A stretch of 64,000 nt of DNA from Candidatus Anstonellales archaeon (GCA_038890615.1 JAWAFI010000002.1:17488-81487), one strand, 5' to 3'; shown: positions 25,101 to 33,615, numbered from the stretch's first letter. Notes: a model not told the origin generated them from the sequence alone. A program made the numbers and translations.

Positions 25101-25137
25101 TGCGCTTAATAATAACCACTGCGACCAGGTGATAGGT

Positions 25138-26223
25138 ATGGAAGATTTGATAAGATCAGTAACTAAATCTGGATTTGAAGGGGCTAAAGCAGAAGACAGC
25201 GGAAACATTGACAGTTCTGATACTATAAAAATAGTAACAGTAGGGGTTGGTGGTGGAGGGAACAACACTATCAACAGGCTAGTGAAGCTAGGGGTCAAAG
25301 GCTCTGAGCTTTGCGCTGTTAACACGGATGCCCAGCACTTAAAGCTTATGCACGAGAGTGTTAAGAAGATACTCATAGGGAAGAGCATAACAAGGGGGCT
25401 TGGGGCAGGAGGAGACCCTGACATAGGAGCAAAAGCTGCTGAAGTTGACAGGGCATCCTTAGAGAAAGCAGTTGAAGGGGCACACTTAGTTTTCATTTGC
25501 GCAGGCGCTGGAGGAGGAACAGGAAGCGGGGCAGCGCCGGTAGTTGCGCAGATCGCAAAAGAGCAAGGCGCGATTACCGTAGCGATGGTCACTTATCCGT
25601 TTGCCTTGGAAAGAGTAAGGAGAAAAAAAGCAGATGAAACTATAGCAAAGCTGCAGAAGATTGCTGACTCAGTAATAATACTCGACAACAACAAGCTTGT
25701 TGAGCTTGTTCCAAACCTGCCTATGCAGGACGCTTTTGTTGTTGCAGATGAAATACTTGCAAGGGCCATTTCAGGTCTTGTATGGACAATAACCCAGCCA
25801 TCGCTCGTAAACATCGACTTTGCAGATGTCAGGAGCATCATGAAAGATGGCGGGGTTGGGTTCATAGCAGTAGGCGAAGGCAAAGGCAACGACAAGGTCA
25901 AGAATGCTGCAGACAGCGTGCTAAAGAACAGGCTGTTGGATGTCGATTTCGAGGGTGCAAAAGGAGCGCTTATCCACATTTCAGGCGGCCCAGACCTAAC
26001 TCTAGGAGATGCAGTCAAGGCAGGTGAGCTTATAACTGAGAGGATGGACCCTGACGCAAATGTAAAGTGGGGCGCAAGGCTTGTCAGCAACTATGAAGGC
26101 AAGATGGAGGTTGTGGCTATCGTTACAGGCGTAAAGGGCGCAAGCGTTGGCGGCAAATCGTTGTCTGACCAGCAAGAAGCAGCTTTCCTTGGCTCTACTG
26201 GAGATTTAGATATGCTAGGCTGA
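25138..26223 (+). CDS. ftsZ: Cell division GTPase FtsZ (paralogue 1)
   Basis: GGGGNN nucleotide-binding loop, tubulin signature GGGTGSGAAPVVA and T7 loop NIDFADV. The ATG at 25138 is preferred over the ORF-track GTG at 25129. Confidence 0.9.
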   Translation: MEDLIRSVTKSGFEGAKAEDSGNIDSSDTIKIVTVGVGGGGNNTINRLVKLGVKGSELCAVNTDAQHLKLMHESVKKILIGKSITRGLGAGGDPDIGAKAAEVDRASLEKAVEGAHLVFICAGAGGGTGSGAAPVVAQIAKEQGAITVAMVTYPFALERVRRKKADETIAKLQKIADSVIILDNNKLVELVPNLPMQDAFVVADEILARAISGLVWTITQPSLVNIDFADVRSIMKDGGVGFIAVGEGKGNDKVKNAADSVLKNRLLDVDFEGAKGALIHISGGPDLTLGDAVKAGELITERMDPDANVKWGARLVSNYEGKMEVVAIVTGVKGASVGGKSLSDQQEAAFLGSTGDLDMLG

Positions 26224-26226
26224 ACT

Positions 26227-27243
26227 ATGACTGATGACTTTGAGGGAGTTCAAATCAGTGTCGTTGGCGTTGGAGGAGGGGGGAGCAACTGCGTCTCCCG
26301 CATGATGTCCTCCGGGATAAAGAGCGCAAGAACAGTGGCCATAAACACAGATTCAAGGCACCTATTAATCACGCAGGCCCACAAGAAAGTCCTTATTGGG
26401 AAGAAGATAACAAGAGGGATGGGAGCAGGAGGGGATGAAAAAATAGGAGAGAAGTGCGCTGAGATGGATGCTGCCCTAATAAAAGAGGCAATAGGAAACT
26501 CCAACCTGGTTTTTGTTACAGCTGGGATGGGAGGAGGAACAGGAAGCGGGGCAGCGCCGGTAGTGGCTAGGATAGCAAAAGAGATGGGCGCCATAACAAT
26601 AGGGGTAGTTACCTACCCATTTGCTTTGGAACGCACAAGGCTCAGGAAAGCAGAGATGGCCATAAACAGAATGGTTAAGGAGTGCGACACTCTAGTAGTA
26701 ATAGACAACAACAGGCTCCTATCTTATGCTCCTAACCTTCCACTGAACCAGGCCCTTGAGATGGTTGATTCAGTGACTCAAAGGGCAGTGGTGGGAATAA
26801 GCGACACCATAATACTCCCTTCATTGATGAACATTGACTATGCAGATGTTAAGAGCGTAATGGCAAACAGGGGCATTGCAATGATTTCTTTAGGCGAAGG
26901 ATATGGCTATACAAAGATAGAGGATGCTGCCAAAAGCGCGCTTGAGCATCCCTTGCTTGATACAACTTACGAAGGGGCAAAGGCAGCACTTGTGCACATA
27001 GAAGGCAATTCCTCACTAACTCTTGGAGAGGCAATAAAGCTGGGCAACATGATAACAGATCGCTTTGACCCTGATGCTAATGTGAAAATAGGGGCCCGCA
27101 TACTCCCTGATATCGAAGGAGTTCGTGTAACTACTATAGTGGCAGGCCTTTCATCCCCATGCTTCCTAAATGGCAAGGCAACAAGCTCTAGTGCCAATTC
27201 CGTGGTCCAAAACTACAGCCCGGAGACTCTCTATACCCTCTAA
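26227..27243 (+). CDS. ftsZ: Cell division GTPase FtsZ (paralogue 2)
   Basis: GVGGGGSN, GGGTGSGAAPVVA, NIDYADV. A divergent C-terminus lacks an obvious conserved C-terminal peptide. Confidence 0.85.
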   Translation: MTDDFEGVQISVVGVGGGGSNCVSRMMSSGIKSARTVAINTDSRHLLITQAHKKVLIGKKITRGMGAGGDEKIGEKCAEMDAALIKEAIGNSNLVFVTAGMGGGTGSGAAPVVARIAKEMGAITIGVVTYPFALERTRLRKAEMAINRMVKECDTLVVIDNNRLLSYAPNLPLNQALEMVDSVTQRAVVGISDTIILPSLMNIDYADVKSVMANRGIAMISLGEGYGYTKIEDAAKSALEHPLLDTTYEGAKAALVHIEGNSSLTLGEAIKLGNMITDRFDPDANVKIGARILPDIEGVRVTTIVAGLSSPCFLNGKATSSSANSVVQNYSPETLYTL

Positions 27244-27256
27244 CCTTTTTTATTTA

Positions 27257-29665
27257 TTACTTCGGCTTGAATCCCCTCATTAATAAGCTGTTTGCAACAA
27301 CGCTTATAGAGCTTAGCGCCATTGCCGCCCCTGCTAATGCAGGGTCCAGTACAAGCCCTGTAAATGGGTATAAAACCCCCATAGCAATGGGTATCCCAAC
27401 CGCGTTGTAGAAGGATGCCCAGAACAGGTTCTGTTTTATTTTGCTTACTGAATACTTGCTCAATTGCACTGCCTTTACTACATCTTTTAGGCTGCTTTTG
27501 ACCAGCACCATGTCTCCGCTTTCTATTGCCACATCAGTGCCTGCGCCTATTGCAATGCCTACATCTGCCTGTGCAAGCGCATGCGCATCGTTTATTCCGT
27601 CTCCAACAAACGCAACCTTTCCACTCTCCTGCAGCTTCTTCACCTTTTCTGTCTTTTCTTGTGGCGCTAGCTCAGCAGCAACATCTTCTATGCCAGCCTG
27701 CTTTGCTATTGCTTTTGCAGTTCTTTTGTTGTCCCCAGTAACCATTGCCACCTTATACCCCATTCCTTTAAGCTTTTCTACTGCTTCCTTTGAGTCATCT
27801 TTTATAACATCTGCAATCCCTATTATACCTGCAAGTTTGCCGTTTACTCCAACAAAAATTACAGTATTTCCATTTTCTTCAACTTTTTCAATTATCTTAC
27901 GAGCATCCTTTGGGATTGAAACCTCTTTCTTTCTCATCATAGCTGAATTGCCTATTACAACATGCATCCTCTTAACAATACCTTCTACCCCATAGCCTAC
28001 TCTCTCTCTAAACCTATCCGCCTTTAGGCTGCTCTTTGCCGTTTTCACAATTGCCTTCGCGAGATGGTGCTCTGAATTTTTTTCAACTGCTCCTGCTAAC
28101 TCCAATAGTTCTTTCTTACTGATTCCAAACGGATGCACGTAAGTTACTTCAAGCTCCCCTTTTGTTATCGTCCCTGTCTTGTCAAAGAGAAACCACTTAA
28201 CCTGATGTAGTGTCTCAAGGCTTTCTGCATTCTTTATTAGTATTCCATTCTCCGCTCCCTTGCCGCTTGCTATCATAACTGCGGTTGGGGTTGCCAGACC
28301 CATTGCACATGGGCATGCAATAATCAGGGTGGAAATAAACATAGTCATTGCAAACACAAAGGTTTGCCCAGCAAGAAAGTACCAATAAATAAAAGCACAA
28401 ACTGCAAGTAACATGACAACTTGCACAAAATAGCCAGCTACTACATCAGCTATCCTTTGGATAGGTGCTTTGCTGCTCTGCGCCTCCTCAACAAGCTTGA
28501 TTATCTGCGCAAGCATTGTTTCACTGCCAACCTTGGTTGCTCTAAATTTAAAAGTCCCAACCCCATTTATAGTGCCTCCTATCACCTGATCCCCTCTTCT
28601 TTTCCTAACAGGCATGCTTTCCCCTGTGACCATGCTCTGGTCTACGCTGCTTTCGCCCTCAACAACAATCCCATCAACAGGTATCCTTGCGCCTGGCTTT
28701 ACCACTACTATTGAATCAACTACTACGCTTTCAACAGGAACCTCCCTTTCCTCTCCATTCAAAATTACTATTGCTGTTTTTGGCTGGAGTGCCAAGAGCT
28801 TCTTTATTGCTTCTGAGGTTTTTCCCTTAGCTATTGCTTCAAGGTACTTTCCAAGCACAATGAATGTCAAAAGCAGCGTTGCAGTTTCATAATACATAAT
28901 TCCGTGGATTACTGCGAACCCTATTAGCGTGCTGTAGACATACGCAGTTCCTACTCCTACAAACACAAGGCTGTCCATTCCTGGCGTCATCCTAAGAAGG
29001 CCCTTTAATCCCTTTTCAAATATCTCCTTGTTTAGATAAATGACACCACTTGCCATAAAAAATTGGAGAATTGCAGATACCTCTTTGCTAAGCATGTTGC
29101 TTAAGCTTTCAGTTCCGAGCATCTCAGGAAGCGCAAGAAGAAGCACAGGTATTGTAAGAAGAACTGAAAAAATCACCCTGTTCCTTAGCGCCCTAAGCTC
29201 TGCATTGCTCTTTTCCTCTGCTGAACCATGCTCTTCATAGGCCTCAATCCTATATCCAGCGCTTTCTATTGCTTTTTTTACCTTTTCAAAATCAGCCCTT
29301 TCCTTATCATACAATATATTTGCCCTCCCAGTAGCAAAGCTTACCTCTGCCTCTTTAATCCCCCACACTTCTTCTATCAACTTCTTTACATGTTCAGCGC
29401 GTTCTTTAGATTCAAGGCCAACTATCTTTACTTCCATCCCTTCTTTCTTCTCTTCAAGCTCCTCAACTTCATACCCTAGCCCCTTAATCAATCTCTTTAT
29501 TTCCCCAATTCCAATAATTCCTTCATGATATTCTACTGTGGCCTTTCCTGTGGCATAGTTCACATTTGCACTTTCAATACCTTTTATATTTCTTAGCTTT
29601 TTTTCTATGTTTACTGCACATGAGGAGCAATCCATACCATCTATCTGCAGTGTAACCCTTCTCAT
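27257..29665 (-). CDS. copA: Copper-translocating P1B-type ATPase
   Basis: N-terminal [18 protein letters not shown] plus a second degenerate HMA. TM CPC motif [16 protein letters not shown] phosphorylation site, and [10 protein letters not shown]. Confidence 0.9.
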
Positions 29666-30579
29666 ACTAACACCCCGTAAACGAGCCCTGCTCTAGGACC
29701 ATAAATTATTAATCCAGTCAAGAAACTTGATAGCAAAAGGCTATTTATAAAAAAGCCTAAGAGGGTGGTATTAAAGTCACCTATCTTAACTTCTCCTTGT
29801 TCGCGGTACATTACATAACTCAACCCCCCTATCACCACCATGCACACGGCAGCTAGTAGATATAGAGATACCAAGAGGTTGTCGTTTATAAGCATTGCTG
29901 AAAGCATTGCGCCCATGGTTCCTGCCATTAACCCTGCCATTATCCCCTCCATTACGCCCATTATGCCACAGTAACGCCCAGCCATTATGCCAAACCCAAT
30001 CCCTAAAGAGGCACCAACTAAAGAACCTACAAACATTCCATTGGTCGCCCCTATTGTAGCTCCGCTCATAAAACCTACTACCATTCCTATCGTCATTCCA
30101 ATCATCATTCCGTTCATGCAACTAAGATTTCTTTTATAGCATTCTACGAGACTCATTGAATATGTAGTGACAACTCCTGTTGCTATTGAGAGTAGAATGA
30201 GTGGAAAATATACTTTTATGGTTGTTCCTAAAGTATAATATACCACGAGCACAAGCACTAAAAGAACGATTGCTGAGAAAAGCGCATAGTTAATCAATTT
30301 TGCCTCTACTACGAGCTTGCCTGAAAGCGTTCTCTTAATATATTCAAAAACCCTGTGTGGATCACCTCTTCTCTCTTCTGAGCCTTTCTCAAGATATCCA
30401 TTCTCTGCAAGTGCTCTTCTCAAGCCCGCTATCTTATCCTCCTCAACGCTAAACAAGACCTTTCCTGTTTTAATATCTATTTCAACAACCTGCGCTCCAT
30501 TCTCCTGCGCCACTTTTTTAAGTATCTCTATACAGGATTCGCAGGAAGCGTTCTGGAGGTTCAATTCAAGTTGACTCAT
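29662..30579 (-). CDS. HMA-domain / Met-Gly-rich polytopic membrane fusion protein (putative Cu(I)-handling membrane protein)
   Basis: N-terminal HMA fold with CESC ([16 protein letters not shown]...). Then six to eight TM helices rich in GxxxG and M ([30 protein letters not shown]...[19 protein letters not shown]). Overlaps the copA start by 4 nt. Confidence 0.5.
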
Positions 30580-30588
30580 TCCAGCACC

Positions 30589-30762
30589 TTATAGTATGGC
30601 CTTCTTTACTCTGCTTATCGTTTCATTACCCTCATATTCTATTATAACTTTCCCTATACTTACGTTGACACTCTTTAATCCTGGTATGTCAGCTATTACC
30701 CCCCTAATCAATGCACTTCGTGATTTGCAACACATTCTACTTATCTTTATTTCTGCTTTCAT
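30589..30762 (-). CDS. Small HMA-like (CopZ-like) protein with CC in place of CxxC
   Basis: From the internal ATG: MKAEIKISRMCCKSRSALIRGVIADIPGLKSVNVSIGKVIIEYEGNE, which has HMA beta-alpha-beta-beta-alpha-beta spacing. The metal-binding motif reads M-C-C rather than M-x-C-x-x-C. Confidence 0.35.
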   Translation of the reverse strand: MKAEIKISRMCCKSRSALIRGVIADIPGLKSVNVSIGKVIIEYEGNETISRVKKAIL

Positions 30763-30773
30763 TAAATCACCTC

Positions 30774-31016
30774 TTAGTGAATTACGATGTATCCCTCCTG
30801 TTCCATCATCGTGACGATATCTTCGATCCATTTCTGACCACAATCAATTATTGCTACAACCTCTTTGTGTTTCCTTTTAACATGGTTGTTCATATTTCCA
30901 ATATGCTTTTCTATTTCATCAAGAAGGTTCTCACATCTCATGCAACAAATCATCTGCAGTTCCGCTGTACCTTTTTCCGCATTTTCCTTCATTATTTTAT
31001 ATGTACCTCCCATCAT
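30774..31016 (-). CDS. Small Cys-rich putative metal-binding protein
   Basis: An 80-aa protein with ICCMRC...DCGQKW. It sits between the cupredoxin-like and CopZ-like genes on the same strand. Confidence 0.3.
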   Translation of the reverse strand: MMGGTYKIMKENAEKGTAELQMICCMRCENLLDEIEKHIGNMNNHVKRKHKEVVAIIDCGQKWIEDIVTMMEQEGYIVIH

Positions 31017-31564
31017 TCAACCACCATCTTTCCTACAAACATGTTCATACTACAATGGTATCTGTAGGAACCAACTTTATTTGGTGTGAACTCTACAACC
31101 TGTGTTTCTCCATTCTTGGAGTAGAGCCGAACACCAAACTCATCAAGAATCATGTATCTGCCGCATCCAGAAGAGGGTTCTGCGCTAAAGTAAAGCCTTA
31201 CTGGTACTCCTTTCTTAACTCGTACTTCTTCTGGCTCATATCTTCCTGTTCCAAGCGCCTTTATGTATATCTCTTGCATTTCTCCTTTTGCAGCAGACAG
31301 GTTTGTCTCATTTTGTTCGAGTTTAGACCATGAGTTTTCATTGCATCCACATCCTCCTAAACTCCAGCTGCTAATACTTGCTTTGGAAGGGTACAGGACT
31401 CTATTTTCTACTACGTTCCCATTTGCTTGCGCAGAGTCTGTACTCTTTTTTAAAGCTCCAGGCAACCCTAATATCACTCCTCCTGTCACTGCACCGGCGA
31501 GCAGGAGGGCCCAAAAGAGCACCCAAGTGGTTTTTTGTATTCTTATTTTTTCCACATACCTCAC
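31013..31564 (-). CDS. Membrane-anchored protein with Cys/His/Met-rich, cupredoxin-like C-terminal segment (putative copper-binding)
   Basis: N-terminal TM (WVLFWALLLAGAVTGGVILGL). C-terminal YRYHCSMNMFVGKM and GCGC / SSGCGRYM motifs. Confidence 0.3.
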   Translation of the reverse strand: MRYVEKIRIQKTTWVLFWALLLAGAVTGGVILGLPGALKKSTDSAQANGNVVENRVLYPSKASISSWSLGGCGCNENSWSKLEQNETNLSAAKGEMQEIYIKALGTGRYEPEEVRVKKGVPVRLYFSAEPSSGCGRYMILDEFGVRLYSKNGETQVVEFTPNKVGSYRYHCSMNMFVGKMVVE

Positions 31565-31612
31565 CCATAAGCTTTATAATGTTTCGTATGTTGAAACAAT
31601 ATATATTAATTA

Positions 31613-32158
31613 ATGAAACAAAGTTTCCAACCTTTGAAACGATATATTAAAAATAAAACGAACGGTTTTACTATGGAGATCAACAAGAAAATGGCTCTTT
31701 TGATTCTTATAATCTCACTGTTTGTTTTCCTTCTCACTGTTCTGGTCATTGTTTATTCAATCTATTCAGGAGGAGATGAAGTCCCTTTTCTGCTCAAACC
31801 TTTTATTGTTTACCACAACGAGTTCATGGTTCTTATGGGTCTAGTTGGGGTTTTTTCTGGAGTAGTAATTTATAGCATAATGGCTTCCTCTCTTAAGAAG
31901 CAGGAGATCATTACCCAGAAAAGCATAGACCTTCTTATTAAGGTTCTTCCTGATGACGAGCGCTCCATAGTAATGCACCTTAGGGGCAAAAAAGGTATGA
32001 GCACCCAAAGTGAGATATCAAAGATTCTTGGCTCGCGCCTCAAGGCCCATCGCCTAGTAAGAAAGCTTTCCGAGCGTGGTATCCTCCTTATTGACAGGTA
32101 CGGTAAAACAAACATTCTACGCCTTGCAGAAGAATTTTCCTTCCATGAAGAAAAGTAG
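31613..32158 (+). CDS. Membrane-tethered winged-helix transcription regulator (two TM helices plus C-terminal wHTH)
   Basis: An alternative ATG lies at 31673. Two hydrophobic helices, then MSTQSEISKILGSRLKAHRLVRKLSERGILLIDRYGKTN (MarR/TrmB-like wHTH). Divergent from the copper operon. Confidence 0.45.
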   Translation: MKQSFQPLKRYIKNKTNGFTMEINKKMALLILIISLFVFLLTVLVIVYSIYSGGDEVPFLLKPFIVYHNEFMVLMGLVGVFSGVVIYSIMASSLKKQEIITQKSIDLLIKVLPDDERSIVMHLRGKKGMSTQSEISKILGSRLKAHRLVRKLSERGILLIDRYGKTNILRLAEEFSFHEEK

Positions 32159-32162
32159 TGAA

Positions 32163-32234
32163 TGCCACAGGGCGGATTTGAACCGCCGACCCTCCGGTCT
32201 TCAGCCGGATGCTCTCCCGCTGAGCTACTGTGGC
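32163..32234 (-). tRNA. tRNA-Phe (anticodon GAA)
   Basis: Reverse complement GCCACAG-TA-GCTC-AGCGGGA-GAGC-AT-TCCGG-CTGAAGA-CCGGA-GGGTC-GGCGG-TTCAAAT-CCGCC-CTGTGGC-A. All four stems pair canonically. Confidence 0.85.
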
Positions 32235-32289
32235 TTTGATTTATCCATTAAGCTAATATATTTAAACCTTCCATTTATCTTAAAAGCAG

Positions 32290-33615
32290 GTGGACAATAT
32301 GGCTTCAGAAGAAGAAGTTGTTTCTATGGTAAGAGAGCAAGGGATAAGGTGGATTGACCTTCAGTTCACTGACGTTCTCGGGCATTTCCGAAATGTTTCG
32401 CTAGTTGCTGATTCAATAGGCACAACAGAGCTGAAGAAAGGAGTTTACACTGACCTCTCGCCCTTGTTTGGGGAGAACTCTTACCTCCTTCCTGATCCAA
32501 ACACTTATGCAAAAATAAGGTGGCTTAGGAGCACTGGGAGGTTCATTGCTTCACTTGTTGATGATAAGCAGAGGGCAAGGGAATACGACCCTCGTTATTC
32601 AATTGAAAAAGCGATTAAGCTTTCAGAGCTTGCTGGCTTCGGCCGCATTGATATCTCACCCTCCATTTGCTTCAATTTACTAGATACCGCTTCCATAGAC
32701 AGAACAAAGCCAGAAAAGCCAGGCGGGGTTCTTTTTGATTCAAGGGAAGCAGCATGGAGCCCTTCTCCCTTAGCAACTCCTGAGAATGCGTACATGTGCT
32801 CCCAGCCATACGATTCATTTGCCACAATAAGGGAGGAAACCTCTGATGTGCTTGAGGCAGATATGCGTTTTCGAGTGATGTCACACCATCATGGCGCAGG
32901 CAACACAGGGGCACAGAGGCTTAACCTTGCACCAATGACTCTCCTTGACGCAGGTGACGCCATCCAGAGCTGCAAGTTTATAATTAGGAACATTGCAACT
33001 GCTGCAGGTCTCACCGCTTCATTCCTTGCACAGCCAGTTCCATCTGACAAGCTCTCAAACTTCATTCTTGGAATAAGCATATGGAAAGGATCAGAAAACG
33101 CATTCTTTGAATCTAGCGGTGAACTTAGTGACAAGGCGCTTTATTTTGCAGGAGGGCTAATAGAGCATGCAGAGGTGCTTTCGCTGTTTGCTTCCCCAAG
33201 CCCCAACTCCTACAAGGCATTCTCTTCAATGTACGCAGGTTTTGGGAACGGTTGCTCTGTTGATTTCGCAGCTCCAGGGAACAGGCCTGACTCTAGCGTA
33301 GTTTTATTCAGAGGAACTGATGGAACAGCCAACCCCTATCTTGCAATTTCAGCCGTAATTGCTGCTGGTATTGATGGCATGAAAAAGAAGAGAGAGCCGA
33401 ATGAGTATGCTTCTTCCCTAGAGGATGTAAAGAAGCATGGCTTGCGCAGGATGACTTCATCATTTGAATACTCTCTTGAAGCTTTTGAGAGTGACAACTC
33501 CTTTGTCAAGAGCGTGCTTGAGCCAGCCCTACTTGATATCTACCTTAAGGAGTATGCAGTAATCCACAGAAAAGCAAGGGCAAACGCAGGTATGGATTAT
33601 TCTACAGGGCTCTAA
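32290..33615 (+). CDS. Glutamine synthetase family protein, divergent (active-site motifs appear degenerate)
   Basis: N-terminal GS beta-grasp (IRWIDLQFTDVLGHFRNVS). The catalytic-domain regions are recognisable (SHHHGAGNTGAQ, APGNRPDSSVVLF). By eye, the positions expected for Mn-binding Glu and the ATP-signature KP...H are substituted. Confidence 0.55.
   Translation: MDNMASEEEVVSMVREQGIRWIDLQFTDVLGHFRNVSLVADSIGTTELKKGVYTDLSPLFGENSYLLPDPNTYAKIRWLRSTGRFIASLVDDKQRAREYDPRYSIEKAIKLSELAGFGRIDISPSICFNLLDTASIDRTKPEKPGGVLFDSREAAWSPSPLATPENAYMCSQPYDSFATIREETSDVLEADMRFRVMSHHHGAGNTGAQRLNLAPMTLLDAGDAIQSCKFIIRNIATAAGLTASFLAQPVPSDKLSNFILGISIWKGSENAFFESSGELSDKALYFAGGLIEHAEVLSLFASPSPNSYKAFSSMYAGFGNGCSVDFAAPGNRPDSSVVLFRGTDGTANPYLAISAVIAAGIDGMKKKREPNEYASSLEDVKKHGLRRMTSSFEYSLEAFESDNSFVKSVLEPALLDIYLKEYAVIHRKARANAGMDYSTGL

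Follow-up and report, generated by a model that had tools for sequence, protein, structure and literature searches.

In a 64,000-nucleotide (nt) stretch of DNA from a Candidatus Anstonellales archaeon, a member of the class Micrarchaeia of the DPANN/Nanobdellati (GCA_038890615.1, JAWAFI010000002.1:17488-81487; hereafter the window), we analyzed a cluster of six genes with a predicted role in the handling of copper. Five closely spaced genes occupy the minus strand between 27257 and 31564, and a divergent gene on the plus strand, at 31673-32158, encodes a winged-helix protein with two transmembrane helices (TM1 and TM2). All six open reading frames (ORFs) were confirmed at their coordinates, gene calling done independently on the public contig of identical sequence returned the same six genes, and the proteins of 305 and 161 amino acids (aa) are identical to the NCBI proteins QW035_03490 and QW035_03510. 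Both the sequence and the independent gene call therefore bear out the arrangement described in an earlier note on this DNA, in which overlapping or abutting minus-strand genes face a divergent regulator. The six ORFs of that note exist, but two of its start codons do not hold, that of the regulator lying at 31673 rather than 31613 and that of the CopZ-like gene at 30762 rather than 30843. The genes are as follows (the basis of each assignment is given in parentheses).

27257-29665, minus strand: copA, encoding a predicted Cu(I)/Ag(I)-type P1B-1 ATPase of 802 aa (TIGR01511, Pfam and motifs).
29662-30579, minus strand: gene for an HMA-fused polytopic membrane protein of 305 aa (family alignment, AlphaFold 2 (AF2) and Foldseek).
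30589-30762, minus strand: gene for a degenerate CopZ of 57 aa (alignment with 75 syntenic CopZ genes, and hhalign).
30774-31016, minus strand: 80-aa ORF, best read as a fast-diverged CopZ/HMA paralogue (CopZ profile, hhalign and ATGA overlap).
31013-31564, minus strand, the start probably being the GTG at 31555: gene for a CupA-like membrane-anchored cupredoxin, a predicted Cu(I) chaperone (PF13473, and phmmer against CupA).
31673-32158, plus strand: gene for a membrane-tethered regulator of 161 aa (family alignment, AF2 and hydropathy).

The packing of the five minus-strand genes is that of an operon. The cupA-like gene overlaps the 80-aa ORF through an ATGA, as the 305-aa gene overlaps copA (4 nt), and the two remaining junctions are short gaps that carry GGTG-type Shine-Dalgarno motifs: 11 nt between the 80-aa ORF and the 57-aa CopZ gene, with GAGGTGAT serving as the Shine-Dalgarno sequence of the latter ahead of its ATG at 30762, and 9 nt between the CopZ gene and the 305-aa gene, with AGGTG. 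The product of the last gene, CopA, scores 621 bits against TIGR01511 (cut-off 397), matches E1-E2_ATPase, Hydrolase and two HMA stretches in Pfam, and contains CPC451, DKTGT495, YN753 and MALSS782. It thus has the DKTGT core, the CPC/YN/MxxSS motifs and the score above the curated model cut-off by which P1B-1 Cu(I)-ATPases are recognized, and, because of that score and those motifs, we predict that it is a standard Cu(I) P1B-1 pump. At its N-terminus CopA has one CxxC HMA domain (C13-C16) and one HMA domain that lacks Cys; a single N-terminal CxxC is typical of CopA in related loci.

The first gene of the operon encodes a protein with one N-terminal transmembrane helix, a linker containing GCGC (C72, C74) and a cupredoxin domain that scores 42 bits against PF13473 (Cupredoxin_1; cut-off 27). 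A phmmer comparison aligned it with the whole soluble domain of Streptococcus pneumoniae CupA (2MRY/4F2E; E 4e-15) and, with the Cys and CxMxM residues matched, with the N-terminal domain of pneumococcal CopA (4F2F; E 1e-8). The candidate ligands C134 and C171-S-M173-N-M175 align with the Cys...CxMxM residues of pneumococcal CupA and are conserved across 78 related cupA-like loci, in whose products the hydrophobic N-terminal helix is also present. The protein accordingly has both the single transmembrane helix with Cupredoxin_1 and the Cys...CxMxM ligands expected of the CupA type, and it is a clear CupA homologue for which binding and transfer of Cu(I) are predicted. Of the earlier description of a membrane-anchored, Cys/His/Met-rich cupredoxin-like protein, the cupredoxin assignment therefore stood and the novelty of type did not. 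CupA has been said to be confined to a few streptococci and lactobacilli and is defined by its Cys...CxMxM motif (PMC7558416, PMC5552934). (Note that a GCxC occurs in the linker after the transmembrane helix in 17 of the 78 CupA-like proteins, that of the window included, and that tandem cupA-like duplicates or an extra copy past copA occur in several loci: L003, L008, L010, L014, L029, L032; L005, L009, L019.)

The module recurs in other archaea, and it does so from two independent seeds. A scan seeded with the 305-aa family, taking one genome per species, gave 80 loci (ORF and profile analyses count over 81), mostly from Micrarchaeota, with some from Iainarchaeota, Woesearchaeota or Nanoarchaeota and two from bins labeled Methanoregula. 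The regulator is found in 65 of 81 loci, the cupA-like gene in 78 and CopZ in about 75; the small ORFs, which the earlier note would have taken as spurious had homologous loci lacked them, are thus conserved. The exact order regulator (divergent)-cupA-like-copZ-HMA-membrane-copA was found in 39 of the 80 loci and the core order regulator-cupA-like-copZ-HMA-membrane(-copA) in 52, the remainder being mostly contig-end cuts or permutations. In the reverse test, a metagenome scan seeded with the regulator alignment (27 loci), each of the 21 loci with usable upstream sequence carries a divergent cupA-like gene, and every locus with enough flank carries the whole operon. In none of these 21 informative loci did the regulator lie beside unrelated genes, an arrangement that would have told against its link to copper. 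This copper-export cluster is conserved in about a hundred small DPANN archaea.

The genes that flank the module (FtsZ, GlnA-like, ankyrin) are not shared between loci, and the conserved unit is therefore the module itself. We call it a portable cassette rather than an "island" in the sense of DNA acquired horizontally: the flanks vary by species, the dip in G+C content is slight (0.39 versus 0.44), and no mobility genes were seen, although no search was aimed at them. Two contigs that carry the module are binned as Methanoregula (L043, L047) and one as Thaumarchaeota (L041), which could reflect either spread beyond DPANN or mis-binning; no regulator was seen on the two Methanoregula contigs, and L041 is cut at its upstream end.

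The intergenic region between the operon and the regulator gene contains the following elements, none of which is assigned to a strand. Both TATA-like boxes were read from the sequence, and the function of each element is predicted.

31580-31598: predicted operator O1, the palindrome TGTTTCA-N5-cGAAACA, between the TATA box and the cupA-like start.
31599-31613: putative promoter element of the operon, the AT-rich TATA-like box ATATATATTAATTAA.
31614-31620: third half-site (TGAAACA on the plus strand, TGTTTCA on the minus strand), abutting the TATA box on its upstream side relative to the operon.
31622-31641: putative operator O2, the imperfect palindrome aGTTTCc-N5-TGAAACg, next to the TATA-like box of the regulator.
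31643-31656: TATA-like box of the regulator gene itself.

This arrangement follows a design shared by the divergent intergenic regions across loci, GATTGTTTCA-N7-TAATATATA-TTGTTTCA-N5/6-TGAAACA, in which the TATA box has one half-site at its upstream edge and, immediately downstream, an inverted repeat at the expected start of transcription; the box of the window, ATATATATTAATTAA, corresponds to the cross-locus consensus TTTAATATATA between the half-sites. The conserved operator TGTTTCA-N5/6-TGAAACA, counted with up to two mismatches, is present in 67 of 73 divergent regions. Half-sites, of which most loci have exactly three, are enriched 38-fold there, at 9.55 per kb, over the 1.2 Mb of DNA around them, which has 0.25 per kb. 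O1 is the sole such palindrome in the 64 kb of the window (two strand matches at one site versus 0.10 expected), and O2 is specific to the longer intergenic region of the window. The operator also follows the regulator. Two or more half-sites lie upstream of the operon in 53 of the 57 loci with the regulator gene, and none in 16 of the 21 loci without it. In a divergent subfamily of the regulator the recognition helix reads SKVKVSR instead of SRLKAHR, and the adjoining site, which lies upstream of a TATA box, is the everted palindrome TGAAAC-TA-GTTTCA. Because the operator co-varies with both the presence and the subtype of the regulator, there is strong comparative evidence that the regulator acts as a local transcription factor.

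The regulator belongs to a family of proteins of about 160 residues with a mean column identity of 63% in the closer members, and its N-terminus, MEINKK, agrees with the MDxRKK of the family. TM1 spans approximately residues 7-30 and is followed by an outer loop of about 20 residues and by Y47-H48-N-E50-F-M52 at the outer end of TM2. In the AF2 model (predicted local distance difference test score (pLDDT) 79.5), a continuous helix runs from TM2 onward (residues 48-91) and leads into a cytoplasmic winged helix (residues 94-150). Hydropathy and the AF2 model both support the two transmembrane helices, and the number of Lys plus Arg residues per segment (2.4/0.4/18) places the N-terminus and the winged helix inside and the loop outside by the positive-inside rule. 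The earlier account of a regulator with two transmembrane helices and a C-terminal winged helix is upheld. The protein of the window matches DUF7343 (PF24034) weakly (20.4 bits, cut-off 27.6), nearly all of its homologues (n=64) are annotated with PF24034 and many also with HTH_24 (PF13412) or TrmB (PF01978), and the winged helix gives weak matches to LrpA, CadC and MarR.

Archaeal repressors usually bind between the TATA box and the start codon. Because the half-sites flank the TATA box, cover the start site and adjoin the promoter of the regulator gene, the membrane-tethered regulator most likely represses both the operon and its own gene. That the regulator gene always lies beside its target would suit a membrane-tethered factor that needs a nearby operator. 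The gene identities, the gene order in both search directions, and the operator with its co-variation with the regulator are direct observations, and together they fit what we consider the probable reading of the locus, namely that it is a self-contained Cu(I) detoxification operon with a divergent membrane-tethered repressor and autoregulator, a standard feature among Micrarchaeia and related DPANN; the operon probably also handles Ag(I). In the mechanism that we propose, the CupA-type cupredoxin chaperone and one or two CopZ-type chaperones would handle Cu(I), the polytopic HMA/Met-ladder protein would relay it and the CopA pump would expel it. The regulator would act as a one-component factor with its N-terminus inside and with TM2 running as one helix into the cytoplasmic winged helix, and a dimer of it would bind TGTTTCA/TGAAACA half-sites that flank the TATA box and cover the operon start site, as well as next to its own promoter, giving autoregulation. 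Derepression would follow when copper is bound at [YF]HxExM at the outer end of TM2, or is handed over from the membrane chaperones, and the signal would pass along the TM2-linker helix.

Several observations weigh against parts of this proposal. No characterized relative exists for the membrane domain of the 305-aa protein, whose role is hence a guess. The regulator of the window has no Cys, and the proposed His/Glu/Met site is a pattern of conservation only. The half-sites upstream of the TATA box would suit an activator too. The 57-aa CopZ of the window is without CxxC and may be non-functional. The CupA-like protein has 1.8 Lys plus Arg residues before its transmembrane helix versus 0.8 after it, a weak bias towards an outside location, and pneumococcal CupA is described as working at the cytoplasmic face (PMC7558416). 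Finally, CopA has HMA-type domains, whereas the CupA partner in S. pneumoniae has the cupredoxin type, a Pfam scan of its N-terminus having returned the two HMA stretches and no Cupredoxin_1, so that in this respect the pair departs from the pneumococcal one.

The two small genes that follow the cupA-like gene are best explained as members of the CopZ family. In the 75 syntenic CopZ genes, which encode about 66 residues, the metal loop reads GMHCxSCE, whereas in the 57-aa protein SRMCCKSRS stands where the family has GMHCKSCE, the second Cys is gone and the last β-strand is missing. Homology is supported by hhalign (probability 97%, E 6e-11, columns 2-59 of 68), with the match to Pfam HMA below threshold (21.6 bits, cut-off 24.8). 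Given what the 75 syntenic genes encode, the "CC" that had been noted in place of CxxC is a local degeneration of a canonical CopZ; the CopZ homology seen earlier thus stands, and what had looked like a non-canonical type is a lineage-specific degenerate copy. The 80-aa ORF retains C25-M-R-C28 among its four Cys residues and EQEGYIV at its C-terminus. It reaches 12.9 bits against a local CopZ profile, a score attained by 0 of 2,000 shuffled sequences (maximum 8.8), and aligns with the CopZ alignment over 56 columns (hhalign probability 68%, E 4.7e-5). These two matches, and the retained CxxC and C-terminal EGY-V, are why it is best read as a CopZ paralogue, and an HMA-like protein of this kind replaces the new type of Cys-rich protein that had been claimed. 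The ORF has no Pfam match at E ≤ 1, and its position in the operon, as the sole open frame in its slot, and its CopZ profile matches lead us to reject pure noise despite its being an orphan in an ordinary search and having only an intermediate codon score.

Both small ORFs could instead be functionless, decaying duplicates, the working module then consisting of the cupA-like gene, the HMA-membrane gene and copA, an explanation that we regard as rather unlikely. It would account for the missing second Cys and last strand of the 57-aa copy, for the finding that the 80-aa ORF matched only itself in an exhaustive single-sequence search of 1.84 billion representatives, and for codon scores of 0.14-0.15, below 96% of true-gene segments (the 80-aa ORF, at 0.149, is intermediate). 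However, the cupA-like and HMA-membrane genes score equally low on codons, both small frames are intact, with well-spaced GGTG Shine-Dalgarno-like motifs and neighbors that they overlap or abut, the 80-aa copy keeps its CxxC and conserved C-terminus, and tandem CopZ pairs occur in L030 and L060.

In about 20 loci, a polytopic membrane protein of about 155 aa is encoded between the cupA-like gene and copZ (L022:5535-6008, L011:7344-7817, L004:7293-7814 and some 17 more). It has an invariant CPxCQPxWL and a C-terminal CEV and matches no Pfam family, and its slot is occupied in the window by the 80-aa CopZ paralogue. We rejected the idea that the 80-aa ORF is a remnant of this protein, the best hit of a six-frame profile search (E 0.05) falling in a plus-strand frame.

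How the regulator perceives copper is where the main rival to our proposal arises. The conserved residues of the family without a structural role are those at the outer end of TM2, [YF]-H48-x-E50-x-M52, followed by M55. Among 86 homologues, down to about 27% identity, H48 is kept in 79, M52 in 79 and M55 in 65. The divergent subfamily has a C...CPH outer loop in place of [YF]HxExM, and this finding of distinct sets of soft-metal ligands in one position would support a regulator that senses copper directly, either at the outer face or in the membrane. We infer that copper is the ligand of the regulator and that it is sensed through [YF]HxExM at the outer end of TM2. In a bolder version of this reading, put forward tentatively as a possibility, the winged-helix proteins with two transmembrane helices would be a new class of archaeal one-component transmembrane Cu(I)/Ag(I) sensor with control of a bidirectional promoter, the 305-aa family being new CopA-linked Cu(I) conduits; the site would then be formed by the His/Glu/Met residues of a TM2 dimer, or by the Cys/Cys/His loop in the sister subfamily. 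The rival holds that the regulator binds no metal of its own and reads copper status by membrane contact with the CupA-like or the HMA-membrane protein, in the manner of the pneumococcal CupA-CopY copper exchange or of transporter-sensor flux signaling. All of these partners are membrane proteins, and their genes are neighbors in each informative locus; H126, in the recognition helix, is the one conserved Cys or His residue in the cytoplasmic part of the regulator; and an interplay of CupA and CopY has been reported in vitro (PMC7558416). Sensing through neighboring membrane chaperones is nevertheless unlikely in our judgment, since [YF]HxExM and C...CPH in two differing subfamilies are easier to explain by direct metal binding, and some loci have the regulator with the cupA-like gene placed differently.

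The subfamily with the Cys-rich loop (SSCT...CPH) is represented by L054:7182-7800, L063:1156-1800 and L078:7278-7960. The order in L054 and L063 is regulator-copZ-membrane-cupA-like(-copA), and that in L078 is regulator-membrane-copA-cupA-like, with no copZ called. In L063, an extra ORF at approximately 1810-2470 separates the regulator from copZ; it is Met-rich (GGMMG-type repeats) with a SHOCT-like C-terminal tail and may encode another copper-binding accessory protein.

The 305-aa protein consists of an N-terminal CxxC ferredoxin-like domain and a membrane domain with Met-ladder and Gly-zipper character (GMMxGMTxGM...). Its family comprises more than 566 homologues, nearly all from DPANN. 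CxxC is present at the HMA end in at least 90% of sequences and 26 of 28 members match PF00403, the N-terminus of the window protein itself giving a weak match to Pfam HMA (17.6 bits, cut-off 24.8). The membrane domain is highly conserved and contains two MxxxMxxxM ladders and a series of Gly residues spaced at i+4; E92, N180 and E211 are invariant, and H144 and C154 are kept in at least 90% of sequences. AF2 modeled the protein with confidence (pLDDT 91, predicted template modeling score (pTM) 0.85). In Foldseek searches against the PDB, only the HMA part found matches (Atx1 and MerP, template modeling score (TMt) 0.72-0.80), the membrane domain giving no fold match (score at most 0.23), and in Pfam the membrane domain has compositional Gly-zipper matches only and no covering family. 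Met motifs at i+4 spacing in transmembrane helices are a candidate Cu(I) path shared with Ctr1 and CcoA, and the joining of a soluble HMA domain to a small membrane transporter is shared with MerT/MerP and MerTP fusions, although we detected no sequence or fold similarity to any of these types outside the HMA part, which alone matches MerT/CopZ-fusion models, and weakly; in MerTP the order of the domains is the opposite.

Translational coupling and constant adjacency to copA lead us to favor, as a guess, a role for the 305-aa protein in relaying or conducting Cu(I) to CopA. It is also conceivable, if quite improbable, that the module supplies or buffers copper, in which case the HMA-Met-ladder protein would import Cu(I) or form a channel for it (Ctr1- or CcoA-like MxxxM) and the chaperones would route copper to cuproproteins. 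The two MxxxMxxxM ladders in Gly-zipper helices, the conserved Glu, Asn, His and Cys residues and the lack of a fold match to any known exporter in the PDB by Foldseek would be in keeping with such a role. However, the gene is translationally coupled to that of a CopA-type efflux pump, lies nearly always directly upstream of copA and is co-regulated from one promoter with chaperones of the resistance-operon type. Least probable is a chance link to the operon, the winged-helix protein being a regulator of general envelope or membrane stress or else a constitutive autoregulator that has nothing to do with metals: its winged helix is generic (weak matches to Lrp, ArsR, MarR and CRP folds), but it is linked exclusively to the copper module in both search directions, and its operator, found at the promoter of the module, is all but absent from the rest of 1.2 Mb of flanking DNA.

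Sulfolobales copRTA/copMA clusters encode an Lrp-type CopR with a TRASH domain, a TRASH chaperone (CopT/CopM) and CopA. The present locus resembles them in being an archaeal locus for copper efflux where CopA is accompanied by a dedicated local regulator and a small chaperone, but differs in that its regulator is membrane-tethered, its chaperones belong to the CupA and CopZ types and an extra membrane protein is present. With Pfam matches inspected to E ≤ 1, none of the six proteins has a TRASH or YHS domain; a reading of the TRASH/CopR type was dropped on this account, and the earlier view of a copper module distinct from the Lrp-TRASH copRTA layout is confirmed.

The bacterial regulators ToxR, CadC and TcpP are membrane-bound one-component regulators with an N-terminal OmpR-type winged helix, a single transmembrane helix and, in ToxR and CadC, a C-terminal periplasmic sensor. 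ArnR and ArnR1 of Sulfolobus acidocaldarius are membrane-bound archaeal regulators (cited in PMC13286277). As in these proteins, the DNA-binding domain of the window regulator is tethered to the membrane, uniting perception and control in one polypeptide; the helix-turn-helix is N-terminal in ToxR, CadC and ArnR, however, whereas here two N-terminal transmembrane helices precede a C-terminal winged helix. With an outer loop of about 20 residues and no extracytoplasmic domain, the regulator falls outside the ToxR/CadC type, and the resemblance is functional only; we detected no sequence relationship to ToxR/CadC or ArnR.

A close parallel is the S. pneumoniae copY-cupA-copA locus (CupA, PDB 4F2E/2MRY), which likewise combines a regulator, a membrane-anchored Cys...CxMxM chaperone and a CopA pump. 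CopY is soluble with a C-terminal Cys motif, whereas the window regulator has two transmembrane helices and lacks Cys; the pneumococcal CopA has a cupredoxin N-terminus in place of HMA domains; and the archaeal operon adds CopZ and the HMA-membrane protein. With predicted bona fide members of the CopA, CupA and CopZ families, the locus appears to work like a copY-cupA-copA or copZA resistance operon. We found no paper describing the module, the regulator or the operator in the literature searched, the coverage of which was limited. What is new is the regulator family together with its operator, the HMA-Met-ladder family, and the occurrence of chaperones of the CupA type across a DPANN lineage.

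DPANN archaea have genomes of about 1 Mb in which almost no regulation has been characterized, and here a regulator, its operator, the promoter geometry and the targets can be read from the sequence. The findings extend CupA-type chaperones from a few streptococci and lactobacilli to an archaeal lineage, where they occur alongside CopZ and an HMA-type CopA, and bring to light two families for which we found no annotation, a candidate winged-helix sensor with two transmembrane helices and the HMA-Met-ladder membrane protein. That five or six copper genes are kept in a reduced genome suggests that copper stress is of consequence for these episymbionts.

The four genes at 29662-31564, which are small or accessory, have codon-usage scores of 0.10-0.17, as against a mean of 0.43 for typical genes of the window, and a G+C content of 0.39 versus about 0.44; membrane or low-complexity composition, or a different history, are possible causes. 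Tandem FtsZ paralogues lie on the plus strand at 25129-26223 and 26227-27243, the second ending 13 nt from the stop codon of the convergent copA, and an FtsZ neighborhood of copA was otherwise found in one locus only, L050. On the other side of the module, a tRNA-Phe(GAA) gene (32163-32234, minus strand) begins 4 nt past the stop codon of the regulator gene, and a plus-strand ORF at 32076-32357, which runs across this tRNA gene, is probably spurious.

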